Shown: piece after piece, positions 11,932-25,160 of the stretch
Layout of the letters: each line of letters starts with the position of its first letter
Numbering within the stretch: position 1 is the stretch's first letter
Source of the DNA: Bacteroidales bacterium
Lineage (GTDB): Bacteria > Bacteroidota > Bacteroidia > Bacteroidales > WRLA01
DNA: 64,000 bases
Assembly: GCA_963662905.2 (NCBI GenBank)
Contig: CAXXFD010000004.1
Span: 194,172 to 258,171, forward strand
Direction: 5' to 3'
Program-made: the position numbers and the translations under genes
Notes under the pieces: model-generated
The model's input: the letters and a program-made list of their open reading frames with translations, nothing else
Databases searched by the model: none
What the model was told of the DNA's origin: nothing

Positions 11932-12840
11932 ATGATGGAAGATAAACAAGCGGAAAATACAGTCCTAAGTTTAAAACAAAGCAATCGTTTTGTGCGGCAA
12001 CAAGGCTGGTTATCTCTGATTATCAACACATTTCTTTTTGTCGTAAAATATGCTGCCGGAATCAGTTCGGGTTCTGTTGCGCTGATTGCCGACGCCTGGC
12101 ATACGCTTTCCGACAGTTCCACTTCGGCGGTTTTGCTGATCAGTGCACGCATCAGCGAGAAACCTGCCGACAAGAAACACCCTTATGGCCACGGACGTTT
12201 TGAGCTTATTGCCTCCCTGATTATCGGGGTAATTCTGGGTGCCGTAGCCATGGAGTTTTTTATTGATGCCATTAAAAAATTCAACTCCCGTGAAACGGCA
12301 GATTTCAACACTTTTGCGATTGTTGCCACGATTGCTTCAGTGGTTTTCAAGGAGCTCCTCTCACAATACAGCTTTTGGGTATTCCGCAAAACAGGAAATA
12401 AAGCAGTAAAAGCCGACGGCTGGCATCACCGAAGCGATGCGATTTCGTCCTTGATTATTTTGGCCGGAATTCTCTTAAGCCCTTATGCCTGGTGGATTGA
12501 TGCCGCTTTGGGCGCGGTGGTTGCCATTATGCTGGCCTGGGTAACTTATACCATTATTTCGTCGGCTGTATCAGAGCTTTTGGGCGAAAAACCCAATGAA
12601 AAAGACATTAAAAAAATCAAGCAGATATGCCGTGATGTGAGCGGTATGGATGTGCTGCCCCACGATTTTCATGCCCACACCTATGGCCGGCATGTAGAGC
12701 TGGTTTTCCACATAAAACTTGATGGTAATTTAAGCTTATACAAAAGCCATGATATCGCAACAGCCATCGAAGAAGCGGTCGAAAAAGAGATGAAGGTGAA
12801 ACCGACGATACATTTTGAGCCGAGGCCGGAAAAATGGTAA
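11932..12840 (+). CDS. Cation diffusion facilitator (CDF) family metal efflux transporter
   Basis: Motifs: GSVALIADAWHTLSDS (TM2 metal site), HPYGHGRFE, DGWHHRSDA, and a C-terminal cytoplasmic domain. The track start at 11659 overlaps the photolyase gene and precedes the promoter box, so I use the ATG at 11932 (MMEDKQ...). Confidence 0.85.
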   Translation: MMEDKQAENTVLSLKQSNRFVRQQGWLSLIINTFLFVVKYAAGISSGSVALIADAWHTLSDSSTSAVLLISARISEKPADKKHPYGHGRFELIASLIIGVILGAVAMEFFIDAIKKFNSRETADFNTFAIVATIASVVFKELLSQYSFWVFRKTGNKAVKADGWHHRSDAISSLIILAGILLSPYAWWIDAALGAVVAIMLAWVTYTIISSAVSELLGEKPNEKDIKKIKQICRDVSGMDVLPHDFHAHTYGRHVELVFHIKLDGNLSLYKSHDIATAIEEAVEKEMKVKPTIHFEPRPEKW

Positions 12841-12841
12841 G
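12811..12841 (+). repeat. Direct repeat copy 1 (last 30 nt of the CDF gene including its stop codon)
   Basis: cattttgagccgaggccggaaaaatggtaag recurs at 15350..15380 with one mismatch. Confidence 0.85.
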
Positions 12842-12932
12842 CCACTTCACATTGGTTGTTTTATTATTCCGTTTCCTTTTAAAAATCATACAAAAATTTC
12901 ACAATAGGCTGTTTAAATCTGAATATTAACAG

Positions 12933-12940
12933 TAACTTTG
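12933..12940 (+). promoter_or_regulatory. Bacteroidota -7 promoter box (TAnnTTTG)
   Basis: taactttg lies 44 nt upstream of the ATG at 12984. Confidence 0.35.
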
Positions 12941-12983
12941 TTAACCGGCAAATCCTTCAGATTGAGAAATAAAACAGAATATC

Positions 12984-15296
12984 ATGAAGCAATGGATATT
13001 TATTTTGTCATTCATATTTATAGGGATTTTGTTAAAAGCTCAAAACATTCATTGGGTTAACCCTAAGCCAACTGGCCAGATTTTTAATAATATTGAATTT
13101 TTTAATGAAAATTCAGGCCTTATGAGCCAGATGGATGGAAAGGTTTTCCAGACCACAGACGGAGGCACGCAATGGGAGCTTTGTTTTGATAATAACGGAA
13201 CTTCAATCCGGCAGATTATTATGCTATCTGAATCTTGTGCCTGGCTGCTTCGCAACAAGAGGGAAATAATCGGAACCACAGATCAGGGCGACTCTTGGTT
13301 TAAGCTGTATAAGTCTCCGGATAGCCTGGAATTTGAGCGCATCAAAATGGTTTCTGAAACTGAAGCCTACGCAACAGTATCATGCATCAACACAGAATCG
13401 ACCTACTTAGGCAAAAGCAGGGATGGAGGGAAGAACTGGACATATAAAAATCTTAATAAGCTCTTAAATGACGGCTCTTCAATTTATGATTTTGCATTTA
13501 CCAATTTGGGGCAAGGCATTATCCTTACTGTTGAGACGAAGAGGATTTACAGGACTTTAGATACCTGCCAGACTTTTGAGTATCATAAATATAACCACGA
13601 TGAAACTTTTTATGCATGTACCAATAGCAGGCAGGGCGATTTCTTTGTAGTTGGTTCTAAAATTTTGAGGAATGAATCAGAACTTGGTTTAGCTGCTTAT
13701 GAATTCATTAACGCGTCAGAAATTGACTACTTGATTAGAAAATCTTCCGATACTGGAAAAACATGGCAGCTTTCATTTTATGACGAAAGTATTCCGCGCT
13801 TGAACTTTATTAAGTCTTTAGGGGATTCAACCCTATACGCTTATGGACGATGCATGGATAACCATTCTGATGAGGGTTGCCGCACCTTACCGCTTATAAG
13901 TTCAACTGATTGTGGAATTAGCTGGGAAATCTCACATACCCCCTATGATTTTCATGATAAAGGGTATTATTATCCTTGGGTCAGGGCCATTGGTATTAAA
14001 AGTAAAACTGAGGCTTTAGTATCTCTGAGTGGTACTAGTGTGAGCAATTACTATCCGGGCACTTCCTCAATGCTGATGCAGACGCAAAATGCACAAGAAT
14101 GGCTTACTCTTCCCGGAAATTTTATTGAGAAGATTAATAGTCTTGTTTTTTTTGATGAAAAACGTGTATTTAGTTCAGAGGATGTTTTGATAGGAAGCGA
14201 CCATTTAGGCAATAAAATTGACACTTTATTATTTAATGAAAATAAATATTTAGGGATAGCTGACCAAATTGATGACAAAAATGTCTGTTGGGCAAGAGGA
14301 AGGAACAGCTTAGGAGCCTTAATCACAAATGATGGAGGAAAAAGCTTTATTTCAGCTGACACCAATACTCTCTTCCATATCAAAGACATAAGCTGTCCAA
14401 CGCCAGAGGAAGCCTATTTCTTTCAATATGACATGGACAATGGTTTTAAAGCGAGTTTATATAAACTAATAGTTTCGGAAAGTCGGTTTTCAGAGATTAA
14501 CATTCCAAATAACCCAAACGGACTTTTGTGCATGATCTTTAAAGAGGATGCAGGATACTTATTTGGTAAATTCAATGACGAAGGGGGATTTTACAAAACA
14601 TTGGATGATGGTGAAAACTGGGTCTTTTATGGTCTGGGATTTGATGATCCTATTCGTTCAGCTACAGAAATAAATGATAGTTTAGTGGTAATTGAAGCCG
14701 GGCATTTTGACCCGCTTGCCTGGGCGTGGCAAACTGAATTCTGGTCTTTGAATTTGAATACCGGCTTATTGGAAGAAAACCTGTATTCTGGTATTGAATT
14801 AGGCCTGGTTATTGATTTCCTGGTAAATAATGAAAACGCTTATTTTGCTCTAAGCAGCAATGGTCTGTTTAAAAGTTTTGGGGATAACTCCTGGGAACAA
14901 ATGGGTATTTTGCCAGACCTTAAAGGTTTAACATTAGATCCCGACGGCTACCACGTATGGGCTTACGGATATTCCGGGCGTTTATTGTATATAGGCGATG
15001 GTTTGCCGGTTTTTGTGGAAACCAACGCCATTCAGGAGCCAGATTGGTTTCATTTGAGCTATATGCCTTCAACAAAAAATATTGAAATTTCGATAGAGAA
15101 CGCTTCATATTATGGAGAATGTATTTACCATATTTCAGATTTAAACGGAAGAATATTGCTCCAGAAGAGTATTAATTTACAGGACAAACCTGTTCGGTTT
15201 TCAATTAACACACAAAAATTTTGTCCGGGCATGTACCTATTTAGCATATATACCAAAAATCAGGTTTTCACCAAAAAAGTGGTCATTTCGGAGTAG
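12984..15296 (+). CDS. Secreted BNR/Asp-box (sortilin/Ycf48-like) beta-propeller protein with T9SS C-terminal sorting domain
   Basis: Signal peptide MKQWIFILSFIFIGILLKAQ. Asp-box motifs: TTDGGTQWE, TDQGDSWF, SRDGGKNWT, SSDTGKTWQ, STDCGISWE, TNDGGKSF. The C-terminal ~75 aa (NIEISIEN...GMYLFSIYTKNQVFTKKVVISE) are CTD-like. Confidence 0.75.
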   Translation: MKQWIFILSFIFIGILLKAQNIHWVNPKPTGQIFNNIEFFNENSGLMSQMDGKVFQTTDGGTQWELCFDNNGTSIRQIIMLSESCAWLLRNKREIIGTTDQGDSWFKLYKSPDSLEFERIKMVSETEAYATVSCINTESTYLGKSRDGGKNWTYKNLNKLLNDGSSIYDFAFTNLGQGIILTVETKRIYRTLDTCQTFEYHKYNHDETFYACTNSRQGDFFVVGSKILRNESELGLAAYEFINASEIDYLIRKSSDTGKTWQLSFYDESIPRLNFIKSLGDSTLYAYGRCMDNHSDEGCRTLPLISSTDCGISWEISHTPYDFHDKGYYYPWVRAIGIKSKTEALVSLSGTSVSNYYPGTSSMLMQTQNAQEWLTLPGNFIEKINSLVFFDEKRVFSSEDVLIGSDHLGNKIDTLLFNENKYLGIADQIDDKNVCWARGRNSLGALITNDGGKSFISADTNTLFHIKDISCPTPEEAYFFQYDMDNGFKASLYKLIVSESRFSEINIPNNPNGLLCMIFKEDAGYLFGKFNDEGGFYKTLDDGENWVFYGLGFDDPIRSATEINDSLVVIEAGHFDPLAWAWQTEFWSLNLNTGLLEENLYSGIELGLVIDFLVNNENAYFALSSNGLFKSFGDNSWEQMGILPDLKGLTLDPDGYHVWAYGYSGRLLYIGDGLPVFVETNAIQEPDWFHLSYMPSTKNIEISIENASYYGECIYHISDLNGRILLQKSINLQDKPVRFSINTQKFCPGMYLFSIYTKNQVFTKKVVISE

Positions 15297-15349
15297 CATT
15301 AATAATTCAGTTTTAACATCTGTCAGGAATGACAATCCTTTAGCCATTC

Positions 15350-15380
15350 ATTTTGAGCCGAGGCCGGAAAGATGGTAAGA
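15350..15380 (+). repeat. Direct repeat copy 2 of the CDF gene 3' end
   Basis: cattttgagccgaggccggaaagatggtaag matches 12811..12841 at 30/31 positions. The tag still reads HFEPRPE(R)W-stop. Confidence 0.85.
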
Positions 15381-15394
15381 AATAATTGCTGTTT

Positions 15395-15429
15395 ACTCAT
15401 CGGATGATTGGCAGTCATCCGATGAGTAG
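15395..15429. terminator. Perfect 14-bp stem hairpin between convergent genes (no clear U-tract)
   Basis: tactcatcggatga - ttggcag - tcatccgatgagta. Confidence 0.5.
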
Positions 15430-20616: not shown

Positions 20617-21305
20617 AAAAGCAAAGCATCTACTATATCGAAGACGAGCCATATCTGGGAAAAATTGTGAAAGAAACCCTGGAAAAGGAAGGCTATGAAG
20701 TGATTTGGGAAACTGATGGCGCAAAGGTTTTAAACCGCTTGCACCAATGGAATCCCGATATCTGTGTGCTCGATATTATGCTGCCCAATCTGGATGGATA
20801 CACCCTTTGCAGGGAAATTAAAAAAATGAAACCCGGCCTGCCCGTGATTTTCCTGACCGCAAAAATAGAAACCAGCGATCTGGTCAAAGGTTTTGAAGCC
20901 GGCGGGAATGATTATATGCGCAAGCCATTCAGCATTGAAGAGCTGATGGTTCGCATTGAATATCACGCCAAAAGCAATGCTGGCCAGGTGGAAGAAAAGC
21001 TTGAAAATGAAATACAAATCGGGAAATACCGCCTGAAGCGGGGCTCCTATGAACTCATCACGCCAACAGATCAGATCCGCCTTTCCAACCGCGACATGGA
21101 AGTACTGGACACATTGGCAAGAAACCGGAATCATGTGACCGACCGCAAGGAGCTGCTTATGAAGGTCTGGGGCGATGATTCCTATTTCAATTCACGCACC
21201 CTGGATGTTTATATCCGCAAATTGCGCAAATATTTCCGCGAAGACGCCCGAATTGAGATTGTGACTTTGAAGGGAAAAGGTTATTTGTTTCGGGTGCCGG
21301 AATGA
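20613..21305 (+). CDS. OmpR/PhoB-family response regulator (receiver + winged helix)
   Basis: Receiver motifs YYIEDE ... VLDIMLPNLDGY ... LTAK ... KPF. The C-terminal trans_reg_C-like region reads LSNRDMEVLDTLA ... LDVYIRKLRKYF ... GKGYLF. Confidence 0.9.
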   Translation: MKKQSIYYIEDEPYLGKIVKETLEKEGYEVIWETDGAKVLNRLHQWNPDICVLDIMLPNLDGYTLCREIKKMKPGLPVIFLTAKIETSDLVKGFEAGGNDYMRKPFSIEELMVRIEYHAKSNAGQVEEKLENEIQIGKYRLKRGSYELITPTDQIRLSNRDMEVLDTLARNRNHVTDRKELLMKVWGDDSYFNSRTLDVYIRKLRKYFREDARIEIVTLKGKGYLFRVPE

Positions 21306-21499
21306 GCTGCTGTTTTTGTTGATATCCAATCACAGTGACTAAAGCAGTTGCAAGAAGAGGCAATTTCATCTCCTGAAGAAAGTTTAGAACTATAAAGACC
21401 TGCCGGAAATTCCGTATTGAACCAAATCGGTTAAACACAAAAATTGCCATAATGCACTTTTCCCTGCAAATCATTACCTTCGCAGCAGAATTTCAGACA

Positions 21500-22753
21500 A
21501 TGCAGGCAGAAATAAACAAAAAGAAGATATTTAATGATCCGGTTCATGGATTTATTTCCGTACCCGGAGATTTGATTTTCGATCTGGTCCAGCATCCATA
21601 TTTCCAGCGATTAAGACGCATTAAACAGCTGGGCATGACCCATTTGGTTTATCCGGGCGCATTGCACACGCGCTTTCAGCATGCCCTTGGCGCCATGCAC
21701 CTGATGCGCCGCGCCATCGAAGTACTGAAATTAAAAGGCCAGCAGGTAAGCGATGAAGAAGCGGAAGCGGCCTGCATTGCGATTCTCCTGCACGACATCG
21801 GCCATGGCCCCTTTTCGCATGCACTCGAAAACACCATCATAAAAAATACCTCCCACGAAGAAATCAGCCTGTTGATGATGCAGCGCCTCAATGAAGAATT
21901 TGAAGGCAAACTGCAATTGGCCATTGAGATTTTTAAAGGAGATTATCCAAAACGCTTCCTGCATCAACTGGTGAGCGGACAGCTTGACGTGGACCGTCTC
22001 GATTATCTGAAACGCGACAGTTTTTTCACCGGAGTGTCCGAAGGAGTAATCGGCACCGAGCGCATCATCAGTATGCTGGATGTGCGTGATGACGAACTGG
22101 TGGTAGAAGCCAAAGGCATTTACAGCATCGAAAATTTCCTGGTCTCCCGCCGGATTATGTACTGGCAGGTCTATCTCCACAAAACCTCACTATCTGCAGA
22201 ACACCTGCTGATGCACACCCTCGACCATGCACGAAAGCTCAGCCGGGGCGGGCATGAACTTTTTGCCACACCTGCATTGAGCTGGTTCCTTCAGAAAGAT
22301 CCCGGGTCTTTGGATTTTCATAATAATCCCGAAGTACTGGATCATTTCGCGGCCCTGGACGATTTCGATATTTTCACCGCTTTGAAAGTCTGGTCATCAC
22401 ATACGGATAAGCTTCTGAGCATAATGGCCGGCAAACTGACCAAACGTAAATTGCTCCGCATTGAATTTCTCGGCAAAAAACCCAAAAAAGACCAGCTCCA
22501 ACCGCTGATTCAAAAAGTTCAGGAGTTCTTTGAACTCAATACCGACGAAGCGCAGGAACTGGTCATCAGCGAAAAAATCTCCAACCACACCTACGATCCG
22601 CGCCAGGGCACCATTAAAATCCTGAACAAACGCGGCGAAGTAAGCGAACTCGATCAGGCCTCCGGCGATTTTGATACACGCGCACTGGCACGCAGCCATA
22701 CCAAACATTTTTTGTTGTATCCGAAGGAGATTGGACGGTTTGAGATGGATTAG
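21500..22753 (+). CDS. HD-domain phosphohydrolase (dGTPase/SAMHD1-like, COG1078 type)
   Basis: Motifs: FQRLRRIKQLG ... TRFQHALGAMHL ... LLHDIGHGPFSH ... DVDRLDYLKRDSFFTG. A near-consensus -7 box (taccttcg) precedes the ATG at 21500, so I prefer that start over 21452. Confidence 0.8.
   Translation: MQAEINKKKIFNDPVHGFISVPGDLIFDLVQHPYFQRLRRIKQLGMTHLVYPGALHTRFQHALGAMHLMRRAIEVLKLKGQQVSDEEAEAACIAILLHDIGHGPFSHALENTIIKNTSHEEISLLMMQRLNEEFEGKLQLAIEIFKGDYPKRFLHQLVSGQLDVDRLDYLKRDSFFTGVSEGVIGTERIISMLDVRDDELVVEAKGIYSIENFLVSRRIMYWQVYLHKTSLSAEHLLMHTLDHARKLSRGGHELFATPALSWFLQKDPGSLDFHNNPEVLDHFAALDDFDIFTALKVWSSHTDKLLSIMAGKLTKRKLLRIEFLGKKPKKDQLQPLIQKVQEFFELNTDEAQELVISEKISNHTYDPRQGTIKILNKRGEVSELDQASGDFDTRALARSHTKHFLLYPKEIGRFEMD
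22651..22697 (+). repeat. Direct repeat copy 1 (inside the 3' end of the HD gene)
   Basis: cgatcaggcctccggcgattttgatacacgcgcactggcacgcagcc recurs at 23388..23434 with one mismatch. Confidence 0.9.
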
Positions 22754-22824
22754 AGACCACTAAAAATCCTTATAATTAACCAATCCATAAAATAAATTCT
22801 AAAGAGTTTTAAACCAATATTAAG

Positions 22825-22832
22825 TAGCTTTG
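22825..22832 (+). promoter_or_regulatory. Bacteroidota -7 promoter box (TAnnTTTG) for the TA pair
   Basis: tagctttg lies 17 nt upstream of the ATG at 22849. Confidence 0.4.
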
Positions 22833-22848
22833 CATAAAACAATATCCC

Positions 22849-23082
22849 ATGAATATTCAAGCGGAAAAATTAGACTTAATTGAGTGGATATCAAAAATAA
22901 ATGACAGTTCACTCATTAGCAAACTAAGACAAATAAAAGAAGATTATTCCCAATCGAAAGACTGGTGGGAATGCCTGAAAAAAGAAGAAATAGATTCCAT
23001 AAACCGAGGTTTAAAAGACTTTGAAGAAGGCAGGATTCATTCGCACGAAACAGCACGTAAGGTTTATGAAAAATACTTATAG
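22849..23082 (+). CDS. Putative antitoxin of a type II TA pair
   Basis: A 77-aa acidic/helical protein placed immediately upstream of a RelE/ParE-like ORF and overlapping it by 17 nt. No family was recognised from the sequence alone. Confidence 0.55.
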   Translation: MNIQAEKLDLIEWISKINDSSLISKLRQIKEDYSQSKDWWECLKKEEIDSINRGLKDFEEGRIHSHETARKVYEKYL

Positions 23083-23371
23083 ACTGATTTGGTCTGATGA
23101 AGCGCTAAATAATTTGAAGGAAATTATTAATTATCTCGAGAACAATTGGACAAAAAGGGAAATCAAAAAATTTGCTCAACTTTTGGATAAACAGCTTAGT
23201 CTGGTTGAGAAGAACCCCTTCCTTTTTGCCATAAGTGATAAATCTAATGGGCTCAGGAAATCGGTTCTTTCAAAACAAACCACAATTTATTACCGAATTA
23301 CTGAGCGTGAAATTAGGATTATAACATTGTTCGACAACAGGCAAAACCCTAACAAACTGCTAAACAAATAG
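23066..23371 (+). CDS. Type II toxin, RelE/ParE family
   Basis: The ATG at 23066 gives a 101-aa protein: MKNTYRLIWSDEALNNLKEIINYL ... KSVLSKQTTIYYRITEREIRIITLFDNRQNP. This is the typical ParE/RelE layout in Bacteroidota. The track start at 23021 is an upstream extension. Confidence 0.75.
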   Translation: MKNTYRLIWSDEALNNLKEIINYLENNWTKREIKKFAQLLDKQLSLVEKNPFLFAISDKSNGLRKSVLSKQTTIYYRITEREIRIITLFDNRQNPNKLLNK

Positions 23372-23387
23372 CAAGAAATTAATATCC

Positions 23388-23434
23388 CGATCAGGCCTCC
23401 GGCGATTTTGATACACGCGCACCGGCACGCAGCC
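23388..23434 (+). repeat. Direct repeat copy 2 of the HD gene 3' segment
   Basis: Matches 22651..22697 at 46/47 positions (t to c at the 35th base). Confidence 0.9.
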
Positions 23435-23501
23435 CTGCTTTTTTTATTCTAAACCACTCATTAGCAATGAATTACATTATACGCTTCGCATGCGCATATG
23501 T

Positions 23502-25160
23502 TCAATCATGAAAAATCAAAAAAGGTCCCGGCTTACTGTACTCCACCGCCTGCGTGGTATCCGAATTCTTGCAGCCCTGTACATCCGTAACCTCCACAAT
23601 TACGCTCAGCGTAGTGTCCGCATAAAAGCTGGTGTCTGTTGAGCCGTTTTGCCAGAGGTAGGATTGAAAATCCCCCGGCCAGAGGTTTGCGCCATAGCCT
23701 TCGCAAAAACCGGTATCGGTTGGCAGGAGCGGAACAGGCAAAGGATGGATAAGGATTTCCTGCACTGTGGTGTCGTTCAGGCTGTTGTTATAGCCAATTA
23801 CACTGACCTGATAAGCTCCGGTATCTTCATAAATATGATAAGGAAAAAAGGAATCCGAATAATTGGCCAAACCGCTGGCCGGATCGCCAAAATCCCAGAA
23901 AACAGAATCCTGGGAGGCAGTATCTGTAATGGCAAAGAAGGTGGTGTCCCCAATACAATGGCCTTCCCATGTGAAATTTGCAGGGTTGAAAAAGGATTGG
24001 ATGAAGGCGGGGAGGCCGAGGCGGCTTAGGTGTGTATTTGAACCATCATCCAAATAAACGGCGGTGTCTATGAAATTACATGCCATACCGAGGGAATCCG
24101 GAAATTCGATCAAACTGAGATATGGACAAGAATTCCGGGAAACATACATGCGCATGTCCGGTCCCATTTGCAGGGCGCCAAAATACCTGGTTGTACCCGG
24201 AATGTCAGCAATTTCAACTACAGAATTGACAATGCTTGTTGAGTCCCCGCTGCTTAAATCATATTGGTATATTTTGTTCCCCAAAGGCATATGATAGTTA
24301 AAGGAAGCCACATAAAGTATTTGCCCATTAGGTGAAAATTCGATTCCATAGGGAAAATAAACAGGGTCAATATACAAACTGACCGGATTGCTTGCTGTTC
24401 CTTGGGCATTGTCAAAATCAAAAAGCTGAACGAATTGCCCTTCATTCGCTACCATGGCCAATTTATCACCCTGAACGGAAGTTTTCATATATCCGCCCAC
24501 ATTAGTTCCCGGGCCTGTGTTGATTGCCCCAGCTGAACTGCTTACCGGAAGGCTATGCAAAGAATCAGAATCTACCAAAAAAGCATCAAAAGTATTGGTA
24601 TTCCATAAATGCGTAATAACCCAAATGGAGGAATTGTTTGCATGGGCAACAGCCGTGACCATTTCCTGTACCGGCCCGGCAAGGAAAATATTTTTTTCTG
24701 CTGTGATATTGCCTAAACCATTATCAAGGTGCATATTAACAACTGAATAGCATAAACCGATGGGGTCGATAAGAAATGGTGCGGTAAAAAGATAAAAGAT
24801 ACTATCGTTCCCGGGAGCAGGGACAATAATGGCCGACATAGTAGCAGATGGGTTCCCATTCAGGTTTTGCCCGTTGGGCATGGTATCATGAGCCGCATTC
24901 CAAACCGTTAATCCATCGGTATAAAACAAAAGGTTCCCTTCTTTATCTGAAATACTGGCACAACCTTCCCATTGGTTGATTTGCCCATCAAAAACTGCTT
25001 GAGGACTACCATCAGGTGTGTTGAAGGTAATACCGGCATGATGCCCAAAATACCAGTTATTGGCCTGTTTGTTTTGGGCAAGTAGCACAAAAGGCAACAA
25101 AAGGCAGGATATTATGAAAATTATTTGGCGCAAATGTTTTTGTTTTGGATTCCAATACAA
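23502..25160 (-). CDS. Secreted beta-propeller/Ig-like protein with the N-terminus typical of T9SS type-B cargo; no C-terminal sorting domain visible (possibly truncated)
   Basis: Signal peptide, then QNKQANNWYFGHHAGITFN, the usual opening of gliding-motility-type C-terminal-domain proteins. The ORF ends ...VEYSKPGPFLIFHD straight after an Ig-like module, with no recognisable CTD. Confidence 0.5.
   Translation of the reverse strand: MYWNPKQKHLRQIIFIISCLLLPFVLLAQNKQANNWYFGHHAGITFNTPDGSPQAVFDGQINQWEGCASISDKEGNLLFYTDGLTVWNAAHDTMPNGQNLNGNPSATMSAIIVPAPGNDSIFYLFTAPFLIDPIGLCYSVVNMHLDNGLGNITAEKNIFLAGPVQEMVTAVAHANNSSIWVITHLWNTNTFDAFLVDSDSLHSLPVSSSAGAINTGPGTNVGGYMKTSVQGDKLAMVANEGQFVQLFDFDNAQGTASNPVSLYIDPVYFPYGIEFSPNGQILYVASFNYHMPLGNKIYQYDLSSGDSTSIVNSVVEIADIPGTTRYFGALQMGPDMRMYVSRNSCPYLSLIEFPDSLGMACNFIDTAVYLDDGSNTHLSRLGLPAFIQSFFNPANFTWEGHCIGDTTFFAITDTASQDSVFWDFGDPASGLANYSDSFFPYHIYEDTGAYQVSVIGYNNSLNDTTVQEILIHPLPVPLLPTDTGFCEGYGANLWPGDFQSYLWQNGSTDTSFYADTTLSVIVEVTDVQGCKNSDTTQAVEYSKPGPFLIFHD

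Follow-up and report, generated by a model that had tools for sequence, protein, structure and literature searches.

A toxin–antitoxin (TA) pair lies directly behind an HD-domain phosphohydrolase gene in the genome of a Bacteroidales bacterium (NCBI GenBank assembly GCA_963662905.2), enclosed by two copies of a 47-nucleotide (nt) piece of that same gene and accompanied by no recombinase. How did it come to be there? We analysed the locus within a stretch of 64,000 nt, referred to here as the window (contig CAXXFD010000004.1, positions 194,172–258,171; C4:194172-258171 in our numbering), of the source assembly (G000; 5.36 Mb in 4 contigs), and compared it with three further genomes of the same genus (G001–G003) and with a more distant outgroup (G004). 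The answer that we favour, and hold at about even confidence, is that the TA pair was inserted directly behind the HD stop codon by a recombinase-less event of the kind called insertion with long target duplication, that a deletion followed, and that the resulting structure then spread. Positions without a contig label are those of the window, and features lie on its plus strand unless stated otherwise.

The two repeats, R1 (22651–22697) and R2 (23388–23434), agree at 46 of 47 nt with a single mismatch, and their starts are 737 nt apart. Matches to the 47-mer at up to three mismatches number two in the window, against 0.00 expected from 100 dinucleotide shuffles, and a third copy is absent from the whole 5.36-Mb assembly. 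Because the genome holds only these two copies, the 47-mer is not a dispersed family, a possibility that a preliminary description of this DNA had raised against its own proposal. R1 (LDQASGDFDTRALARS) is an internal coding piece of the HD gene, in frame, with its first base 100 nt and its last base 53 nt before the stop codon, and it is present at 47/47 in G001, G002 and G003. Scanning metagenome contigs for the repeat core GGCGATTTTGATACACGCGCAC gave 0 matches. Between the repeats, the list of open reading frames (ORFs) and the Pfam matches contain only the HD tail, a -7 box, an antitoxin candidate and an overlapping toxin; no ORF between R1 and R2 encodes a recombinase, and profile matches agree. 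The repeat, its spacing, the content of the unit and the lack of a recombinase inside it are therefore as first described.

The order of parts within the unit is informative. The native HD tail is kept 3′ of R1 (22698–22748 in the four-genome alignment), and identity to the empty alleles of the relatives stops at 22748 (GAGATGG). Sequence comparison then gives a left edge of the insert that is specific to G000 (22749–22789), followed by a cassette upstream region common to G002 (22790–22848) with a Bacteroidota-type -7 box, TAGCTTTG, at 22825–22832, 16 nt 5′ of the antitoxin ATG. The two TA genes come next, and a 16-nt spacer (23372–23387) leads from the toxin stop to R2, with a sharp junction at which ATATCC is followed directly by CGATCAGG. 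R2 is an isolated extra internal HD piece, matching at 46/47 in G000 and 47/47 in G002, and its borders are sharp, without a diverged extension. From 23428 to 23448 a remnant of the ancestral terminator survives (right arm and T-run, no strand assigned), its hairpin gone. The insert comprises 679 nt and is AT-rich, at 31–34% GC against 45–51% in both flanks; its composition is foreign.

The antitoxin candidate (77 aa; 22849–23082) is an ORF that is always paired with a toxin in about 30 other Bacteroidota loci, and its gene is overlapped by 17 nt by that of a 101-aa toxin of the ParE/RelE superfamily (23066–23371). The toxin matches PF05016 at 31.0 bits against a cut-off of 23, and its best solved relative is the ParE of PDB entry 5cw7_B (E 6e-4); its match to the RelE_StbE profile falls under the cut-off, and an exact-protein look-up returned no record. 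For the 77-aa partner, Pfam, NCBIfam and PDB gave no match, and it falls in no recognised family (ParD, RelB, Phd). The predicted pair is kept together in the genomes G002, G017 and G018 and at the loci L045, L048 and L062. Read from these features, it is a predicted self-contained ParE/RelE addiction module with its own promoter.

The sister genomes contain both empty and occupied alleles. Identity to the HD gene up to 22748 is 99% in G003 and 98% in G001, and the match resumes from 23428, with 43–44 nt between the two points. Their sequence runs from the HD gene through GAGATGGGATAA-ACAATACGGAAATATAAAAAAGTAGGGCTGCGATGCATCGCAGCCCTACTTTTTTTT, that is, the stop codon, a 38-nt spacer and a perfect palindromic bidirectional terminator, which folds at -32.4 kcal/mol (z -7.3) and is common to the HD gene and the convergent gene. 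In G004 the HD gene is followed directly by ccmE, without a TA pair, and this pair was not found anywhere in the genomes of G001, G003 and G004. G002 carries it (510 of 523 nt identical) with the same right-hand structure, a 47/47 HD piece and then CTAC TT... In the occupied alleles the former terminator has a z of about 0 and no significant hairpin on either strand, and R2 does not form a new one (23372–23450, z 0.19, no significant fold). Because the occupied alleles lack the left terminator arm and the loop, the empty alleles cannot be derived from them, and therefore, on this comparison, the TA pair was gained here rather than lost from the relatives. The preliminary description had looked to relatives for an empty site with one repeat copy and no TA pair. 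Alleles without the pair do exist, in G001, G003 and G004; the single copy is not in register, since G001 and G003 hold the 47-mer once, without the insert, and the 51–57 nt between repeat and insertion point are not duplicated.

Two lineages appear to meet at this site. The single-nucleotide polymorphisms of the G000 HD gene are of the G003/G001 type up to at least 22714, whereas the cassette and its right flank are 96% identical to G002 against 90–93% to the others. From this discordance we infer that recombination carried the cassette from one lineage to another and that the exchange point on the left lies in the last ~35 nt of the HD gene or at the junction itself. The TA pair sits at the left edge of a variable island between the HD gene and the ccm cluster, which are adjacent in G004, 5.6–8.4 kb apart in G001–G003 and about 20 kb apart in G000 (22754–43059).

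The junctions constrain the mechanism. On the right, the last 7 nt of R2, CGCAGCC (23428–23434), are at the same time the start of the right arm of the ancestral hairpin; the right join is a 7-nt microhomology, at which 37–43 nt of target (spacer, left arm and loop) have been lost. On the left, the native sequence of G002 continues to one base past the stop codon and gives way to 165 nt of other sequence (about 100 of which, L004:1384-1481, are a dispersed repeat of ~85–100 nt that resembles miniature inverted-repeat transposable elements (MITEs) or repetitive extragenic palindromes (REPs), contains CCCGAAACTTCG and occurs in >50 copies in each of G000–G003 and at least 24 in G004). In G000 the native sequence stops at 22748, and the next 41 nt align neither with G002 nor with the native spacer. 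The post-stop sequence of either allele gave no significant alignment as a diverged native spacer, an origin that would put the break at the base of the hairpin, and from 22790 onwards the two occupied alleles are collinear. The locus thus has the order HD 5′ part, repeat, tail, insert, repeat, right arm. The preliminary description had seen in it the footprint of Campbell-type integration of a small circle carrying a copy of the gene end. In its plain form this fails at the 47-mer, because after a single crossover the tail, the stop codon and the terminator would follow the second repeat; here the HD tail follows R1, and R2 is fused to the right arm of the terminator, which is all that follows it. 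An extra illegitimate step is needed; a literature search on double illegitimate recombination gave nothing of direct use.

The architecture recurs in the genome. The genome-wide repeat search that had been proposed at the outset was run on G000 for unique two-copy direct repeats of 22–150 nt, at least 90% identical, 150 nt to 20 kb apart and with dissimilar flanks. It returned 25 matches, two of them classical integrase elements (one bounded by a 60-nt repeat at a tRNA 3′ end, the other by a 25-nt repeat), while about twelve, both window cassettes included, are one- or two-gene inserts of 0.7–2.5 kb between repeats of 28–129 nt. The second cassette that the preliminary description had pointed to (cassette 2; 12808–15379) is real and fits the footprint given there exactly. 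Its 34-nt repeats (12808–12841 and 15346–15379, 32 of 34 identical) consist of the last codons of a CDF gene, the stop codon and 1 nt, and its cargo is a 770-aa gene with BNR and type IX secretion system (T9SS) tail domains (12984–15296). In G001 the site is occupied and the repeats are identical (34/34); G002 and G003 each carry the sequence exactly once. Homologues of the cargo protein in 150 genomes of the order were absent outside G000, which holds six distant paralogues. Just behind this cassette, at 15394–15429, stands a perfect palindromic REP/terminator element (CTCATCGGATGA...TCATCCGATGAG) that occurs in dozens of copies per genome in G001–G003; it is the native CDF terminator, now displaced.

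The suspicion of a recurring mechanism in this genome is borne out by about ten further recombinase-less cassettes of like architecture, at C2:948826-950594, C3:318854-320231, C2:462488-463755, C3:296617-297832, C4:182838-184062, C3:1281444-1282840, C3:1301205-1302147, C3:2070538-2071332, C4:583132-583921 and C1:361929-363690. Their cargo is of the usual accessory or defence type: Abi_2, RhuM, AAA_14-DUF4143, two ATPase_2 proteins, an HTH_3 protein and lipoproteins. When G001–G004 were queried with a concatenate of the predicted empty sites, contiguous sites with a single copy were found in one or more sister genomes for eight cassettes (seven of the ten further ones and cassette 2), in patterns that vary by cassette. 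Several of the repeats end 0–5 nt past a stop codon, and neither a shared terminal motif nor inverted repeats were seen among the cassette ends and the twelve repeats. Two sites are of particular value for the mechanism. At C2:948826 the extra copy encodes INFDIGGSII.. where the native end has IRFEIDGSNI.. (27 nt at 63% beside an identical core of 44 nt), and at C3:318854 it reads DYI for DYV, again an in-frame, diverged gene end. Since fresh copying of the target would not give diverged copies, these sequences point to a crossover between two orthologous gene ends.

Some candidates were set aside. C1:709382, C2:177212 and C2:983814 were dropped from the cassette list because insertion sequences (ISs) or REP sequences are involved; the second of these (C2:177212-178239) is a MazE/MazF-like pair between 67-nt direct repeats beside an IS66-family end, with a multi-copy left flank. 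Three-copy "arrays" at G001 sites were rejected as signs of repeated integration, as they represent a single ancestral insert that contains a partial tandem duplication and has taken up an IS.

Relatives of the TA pair in other genera offer a parallel. The TA unit appears to be mobile: relatives at 72–77% nt identity stand in unrelated surroundings at about 16 other Bacteroidota loci, ~20 more give weaker matches, and homology to the loci of other genera is confined to the interval from about ATG-33 (its start lying between -33 and 0) through the toxin stop. None is a donor with the pair 3′ of an HD gene, as 0 of 80 loci have an HD gene nearby. Tight flanking repeats are found at 3 of 29 related TA loci against 1–2% of random G000 positions. 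At one of them, L045:1060-1960 (Bacteroidetes metagenome-assembled genome (MAG) JABMQA010000641.1), a pair of the same TA family is flanked by a 107-nt repeat that comes from the 3′ part of an RND transporter gene. The two repeat copies differ in 8 codons, 5 of them synonymous, and each continues into its own distinct tail and stop. By analogy, L045 would represent the complete structure that we postulate as the lost intermediate at the HD locus. At L062 the same TA family lies between repeats of about 150 nt. No Rfam family was found between 11 and 26 kb of the window or in the related loci.

We can now set out the history that we propose. In the original event a target segment of ~104 nt, reaching from 22651 to 1 nt past the stop codon, would have been duplicated through a single crossover of a circular molecule that carried the gene end and the cassette and was made by host recombination functions, or through an equivalent process. 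A ~101-nt deletion between two CGCAGCC heptamers beside the perfect palindrome would then have removed the final ~57 nt of the distal copy along with the spacer and the left terminator arm, and would have fused the 47-mer to the right arm. The finished structure would later have moved between lineages of the genus by recombination, bringing a G003/G001-like HD gene together with a G002-like cassette and right flank.

Five points weigh against this history. An allele with the full 104-nt duplication was not found among the four sister genomes. The secondary deletion is a required addition, and the junction is also explained by a single event. Between the two occupied alleles the left edges cannot be aligned, which calls for at least one more, unexplained event. 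The Campbell step does not account for how gene end and cassette first became adjacent. Finally, repeats were what the genome scan selected for, so it says nothing of insertions that lack them and is no evidence that this route is the main one for gene gain.

The strongest competitor, which we think unlikely, is break repair in one step. The palindromic terminator would be cleaved or would stall replication, and repair of the type of microhomology-mediated break-induced replication (MMBIR) or synthesis-dependent microhomology-mediated end joining (MMEJ) would make the repeat de novo: the right end would anneal through CGCAGCC to the HD gene 100 nt upstream and be extended by 47 nt, and this templated patch would join captured foreign TA DNA, whose other end would join behind the HD stop. 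The right junction speaks for such an event: the end of R2 coincides exactly with the 7 nt that it has in common with the right hairpin arm, and what is missing is precisely the spacer, left arm and loop. The strength of the palindrome at the empty site, the sharp borders of R2 and the lack of a known intermediate allele favour it too. The rest of the genome does not fit, however, because all other cassettes with a one-copy sister site have contiguous in-register duplications without loss of target, and the two sites with diverged gene-end copies show what fresh copying cannot give. We also know of no bacterial precedent for foreign DNA being captured after a 47-nt templated patch, which counts against this route. 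A bolder claim, tentative and doubtful in our view, would make the 47-mer the direct footprint of the mechanism of the whole class, namely microhomology-primed upstream copying and DNA capture at a broken or stalled palindromic terminator. If this were true, the class would be a by-product of host break repair at terminators and not of an element-encoded or site-specific activity.

Quite improbable, in our judgement, is that the 47-mers are the attL and attR sites of a tyrosine-recombinase element, either one that has decayed to its TA pair, kept by addiction in a remnant like those known as cis-mobilizable elements (CIMEs), or a non-autonomous one moved in trans by an integrase encoded elsewhere. 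TA modules are typical last survivors of decayed elements, which counts for this explanation. Gene 3′ ends are frequent targets of integrative elements, which often bring a surrogate end with them, and G000 itself contains the two intact integrase elements described above. The preliminary description had advised searching for recombinases elsewhere in the genome. Tyrosine recombinases are indeed available there, with 15 PF00589 matches above the family cut-off and one below; all lie outside the HD–ccm interval, and G000 has no serine recombinase. The window contains no PF00589 or PF00239 match, and neither an integrase nor a fragment of one was found in or beside the unit or in the HD–ccm interval of G000–G003. 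The intact TA pair accounts for the whole interval between the repeats. The geometry is also wrong, with a native tail after R1 and nothing after R2, whose right junction is a microhomology joint rather than an att border, and one integrase cannot serve twelve different repeats without a shared motif. Site-specific integration, the other route suggested at the outset, finds no backing in these results. That the repeat is a chance match, an assembly artefact, a dispersed repeat or a regulatory element is refuted for all practical purposes, given that chance would produce 0 matches, that the genome has just two copies, that the independent assembly of G002 shows the same structure at 47/47, and that neither an Rfam family nor a significant fold was found.

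We return to our preferred history, of insertion with long target duplication followed by deletion, and to its consequences for the neighbouring genes. The target is a dGTPase-like HD-domain phosphohydrolase gene (21497–22753; Pfam HD and HD_assoc_2), whose ORF opens at 21452 and whose probable start is at 21497 by comparison with the G004 orthologue; identity of the orthologues is 97–99% in G001–G003 and 68% (aa) in G004. In G000 its last codon and stop read GAT TAG, the final two codon bases and the stop being supplied by 22749–22789, so that the protein ends in FEMD where the native end is FEMG. On the other side lies a convergent gene for a surface protein of PKD/T9SS type (23502–25160, minus strand), the first gene of the HD–ccm island, whose allele is 96% identical to that of G002. 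After the insertion both genes are without their former shared terminator, and read-through into and across the TA pair is therefore likely. Recombination between R1 and R2 would swap the last 18 residues of HD for 26 unrelated ones. Simple loss of the TA pair would thus be costly, and the pair would be locked in.

The convergent PKD/T9SS-type gene has a second copy, 97% identical, at G000:C3:2377568-2379226, and because its 3′ ~520 nt are common to several paralogues per genome it is likely a recombination substrate. Upstream, 21305–21446 is a synteny break: a block of CDF, TonB, histidine kinase (HK) and response regulator (RR) genes (11.6–21.3 kb) adjoins the HD gene only in G000, different sequence lies upstream of HD in G001 and G003, and in G002 the block is found about 5 kb downstream of the ccm cluster.

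Two observations lie further afield. The closest relative of the toxin (86% aa) is at L048:1-3770 (Lewinellaceae MAG JACJYM010000009.1; G157), where it is one unit in an array of small cassettes, comprising a HigBA-like pair, a 147-aa ORF and the ParE pair. A repeat of ~414 nt, without an Rfam match and with about 25 complete or half copies in the same genome, separates these cassettes, and its halves also occur apart, around ~760 nt of cargo. The array may be an undescribed cassette platform. G000 also carries two large arrays resembling clustered regularly interspaced short palindromic repeats (CRISPRs), at C2 ~18.6-25 kb and C4 ~553.9-573 kb, with a 37-nt repeat, CTCAAAGAGTAACATCCAGAAAAACAAGGATTAAGAC, in one and a 29-nt repeat, ATTTCAATTCCTCATGGTCTGATTGGATG, in the other, which spans about 19 kb.

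How does the TA locus compare with known systems? As a module, the pair resembles type II ParDE/RelBE systems in its ParE/RelE-fold toxin, its small overlapping upstream partner and its own promoter; it differs in that the antitoxin candidate lies outside the described families. As a cassette, it is like integron cassettes and clusters of attC sites lacking integron-integrases (CALINs), which are small, often TA-bearing and without mobility genes of their own, and the L048 relative even stands in a repeat-separated array. Unlike them, it has no attC-like structure (only 16 nt separate the toxin stop from R2) and no IntI, and its repeat is host coding sequence. The minimal mobile elements of Neisseria, alternative cassettes between conserved genes that spread by homologous recombination (PMC1797815, PMC3787668), fit both the lineage discordance and the position of the TA pair at the edge of the HD–ccm island. 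Such elements, however, neither need nor create a flanking duplication, unlike the TA locus.

CIMEs and other decayed integrative elements come closer in form. The CIME concept has been reviewed (PMC5704250), and, as here, direct repeats of a gene 3′ part surround cargo without an integrase. In such elements the copy of the gene end on the element side may be an orthologue that has diverged, which is what we see at C2:948826. The differences are that a cognate integrase is absent from the site in G000–G003, that the repeats have no common core and that the geometry of the TA locus is wrong.

The class to which we assign the locus, insertion with long target duplication, was described for "selfish" gene units without a mobility gene (Furuta, Abe & Kobayashi 2010, NAR 38:2428, PMC2853133). 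It is recognised there by three features: an insert of <20 kb without a mobile element, a unique repeat of >30 bp and, in a related genome, an empty site at which the repeat stands once and both flanks align in register. Overlap of the repeats with the 3′ end of a neighbouring gene is frequent (15 and 2 bp in the H. influenzae cases), and the mechanism is unknown (PMC2853133). Cassette 2 conforms fully to this definition as a clean case, and so do about ten other cassettes of the genome. The TA locus has a 679-nt insert with the TA pair only, and a 47-nt repeat that forms a unique pair in 5.36 Mb; with every feature of the definition present except an in-register empty site, we place it in this class with moderate confidence.

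The TA locus also departs from the class as it was described. Its duplication is not contiguous with the insertion point, as 37–43 nt of target are lost and the joint is a 7-nt microhomology. The cargo is a TA pair (elsewhere in the genome Abi, RhuM, ATPases and surface proteins), not restriction–modification genes. Reportedly the class has been in print since the work of Nobusato et al. in 2000 (Gene 259:99), and only for restriction–modification genes. Because the cargo here is not of that kind, the idea put forward in 2010 that DNA breakage by the cargo drives insertion cannot apply. This argues that such duplications originate independently of DNA cleavage by the cargo and that a second, diverged gene end is the source of at least some copies. 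Cargo that does not cut DNA, together with diverged orthologous copies of the gene end, argues for host recombination rather than the cargo as the maker of the duplications.

The genus offers a natural test bed for this process, with four near-complete sister genomes and a dozen polymorphic cassettes of varied cargo, most of them with one-copy sister sites, and the aberrant microhomology junction of the TA copy records an illegitimate step. The TA locus is a further example of a known, mechanistically unsolved class, here with TA cargo and a trimmed right repeat.

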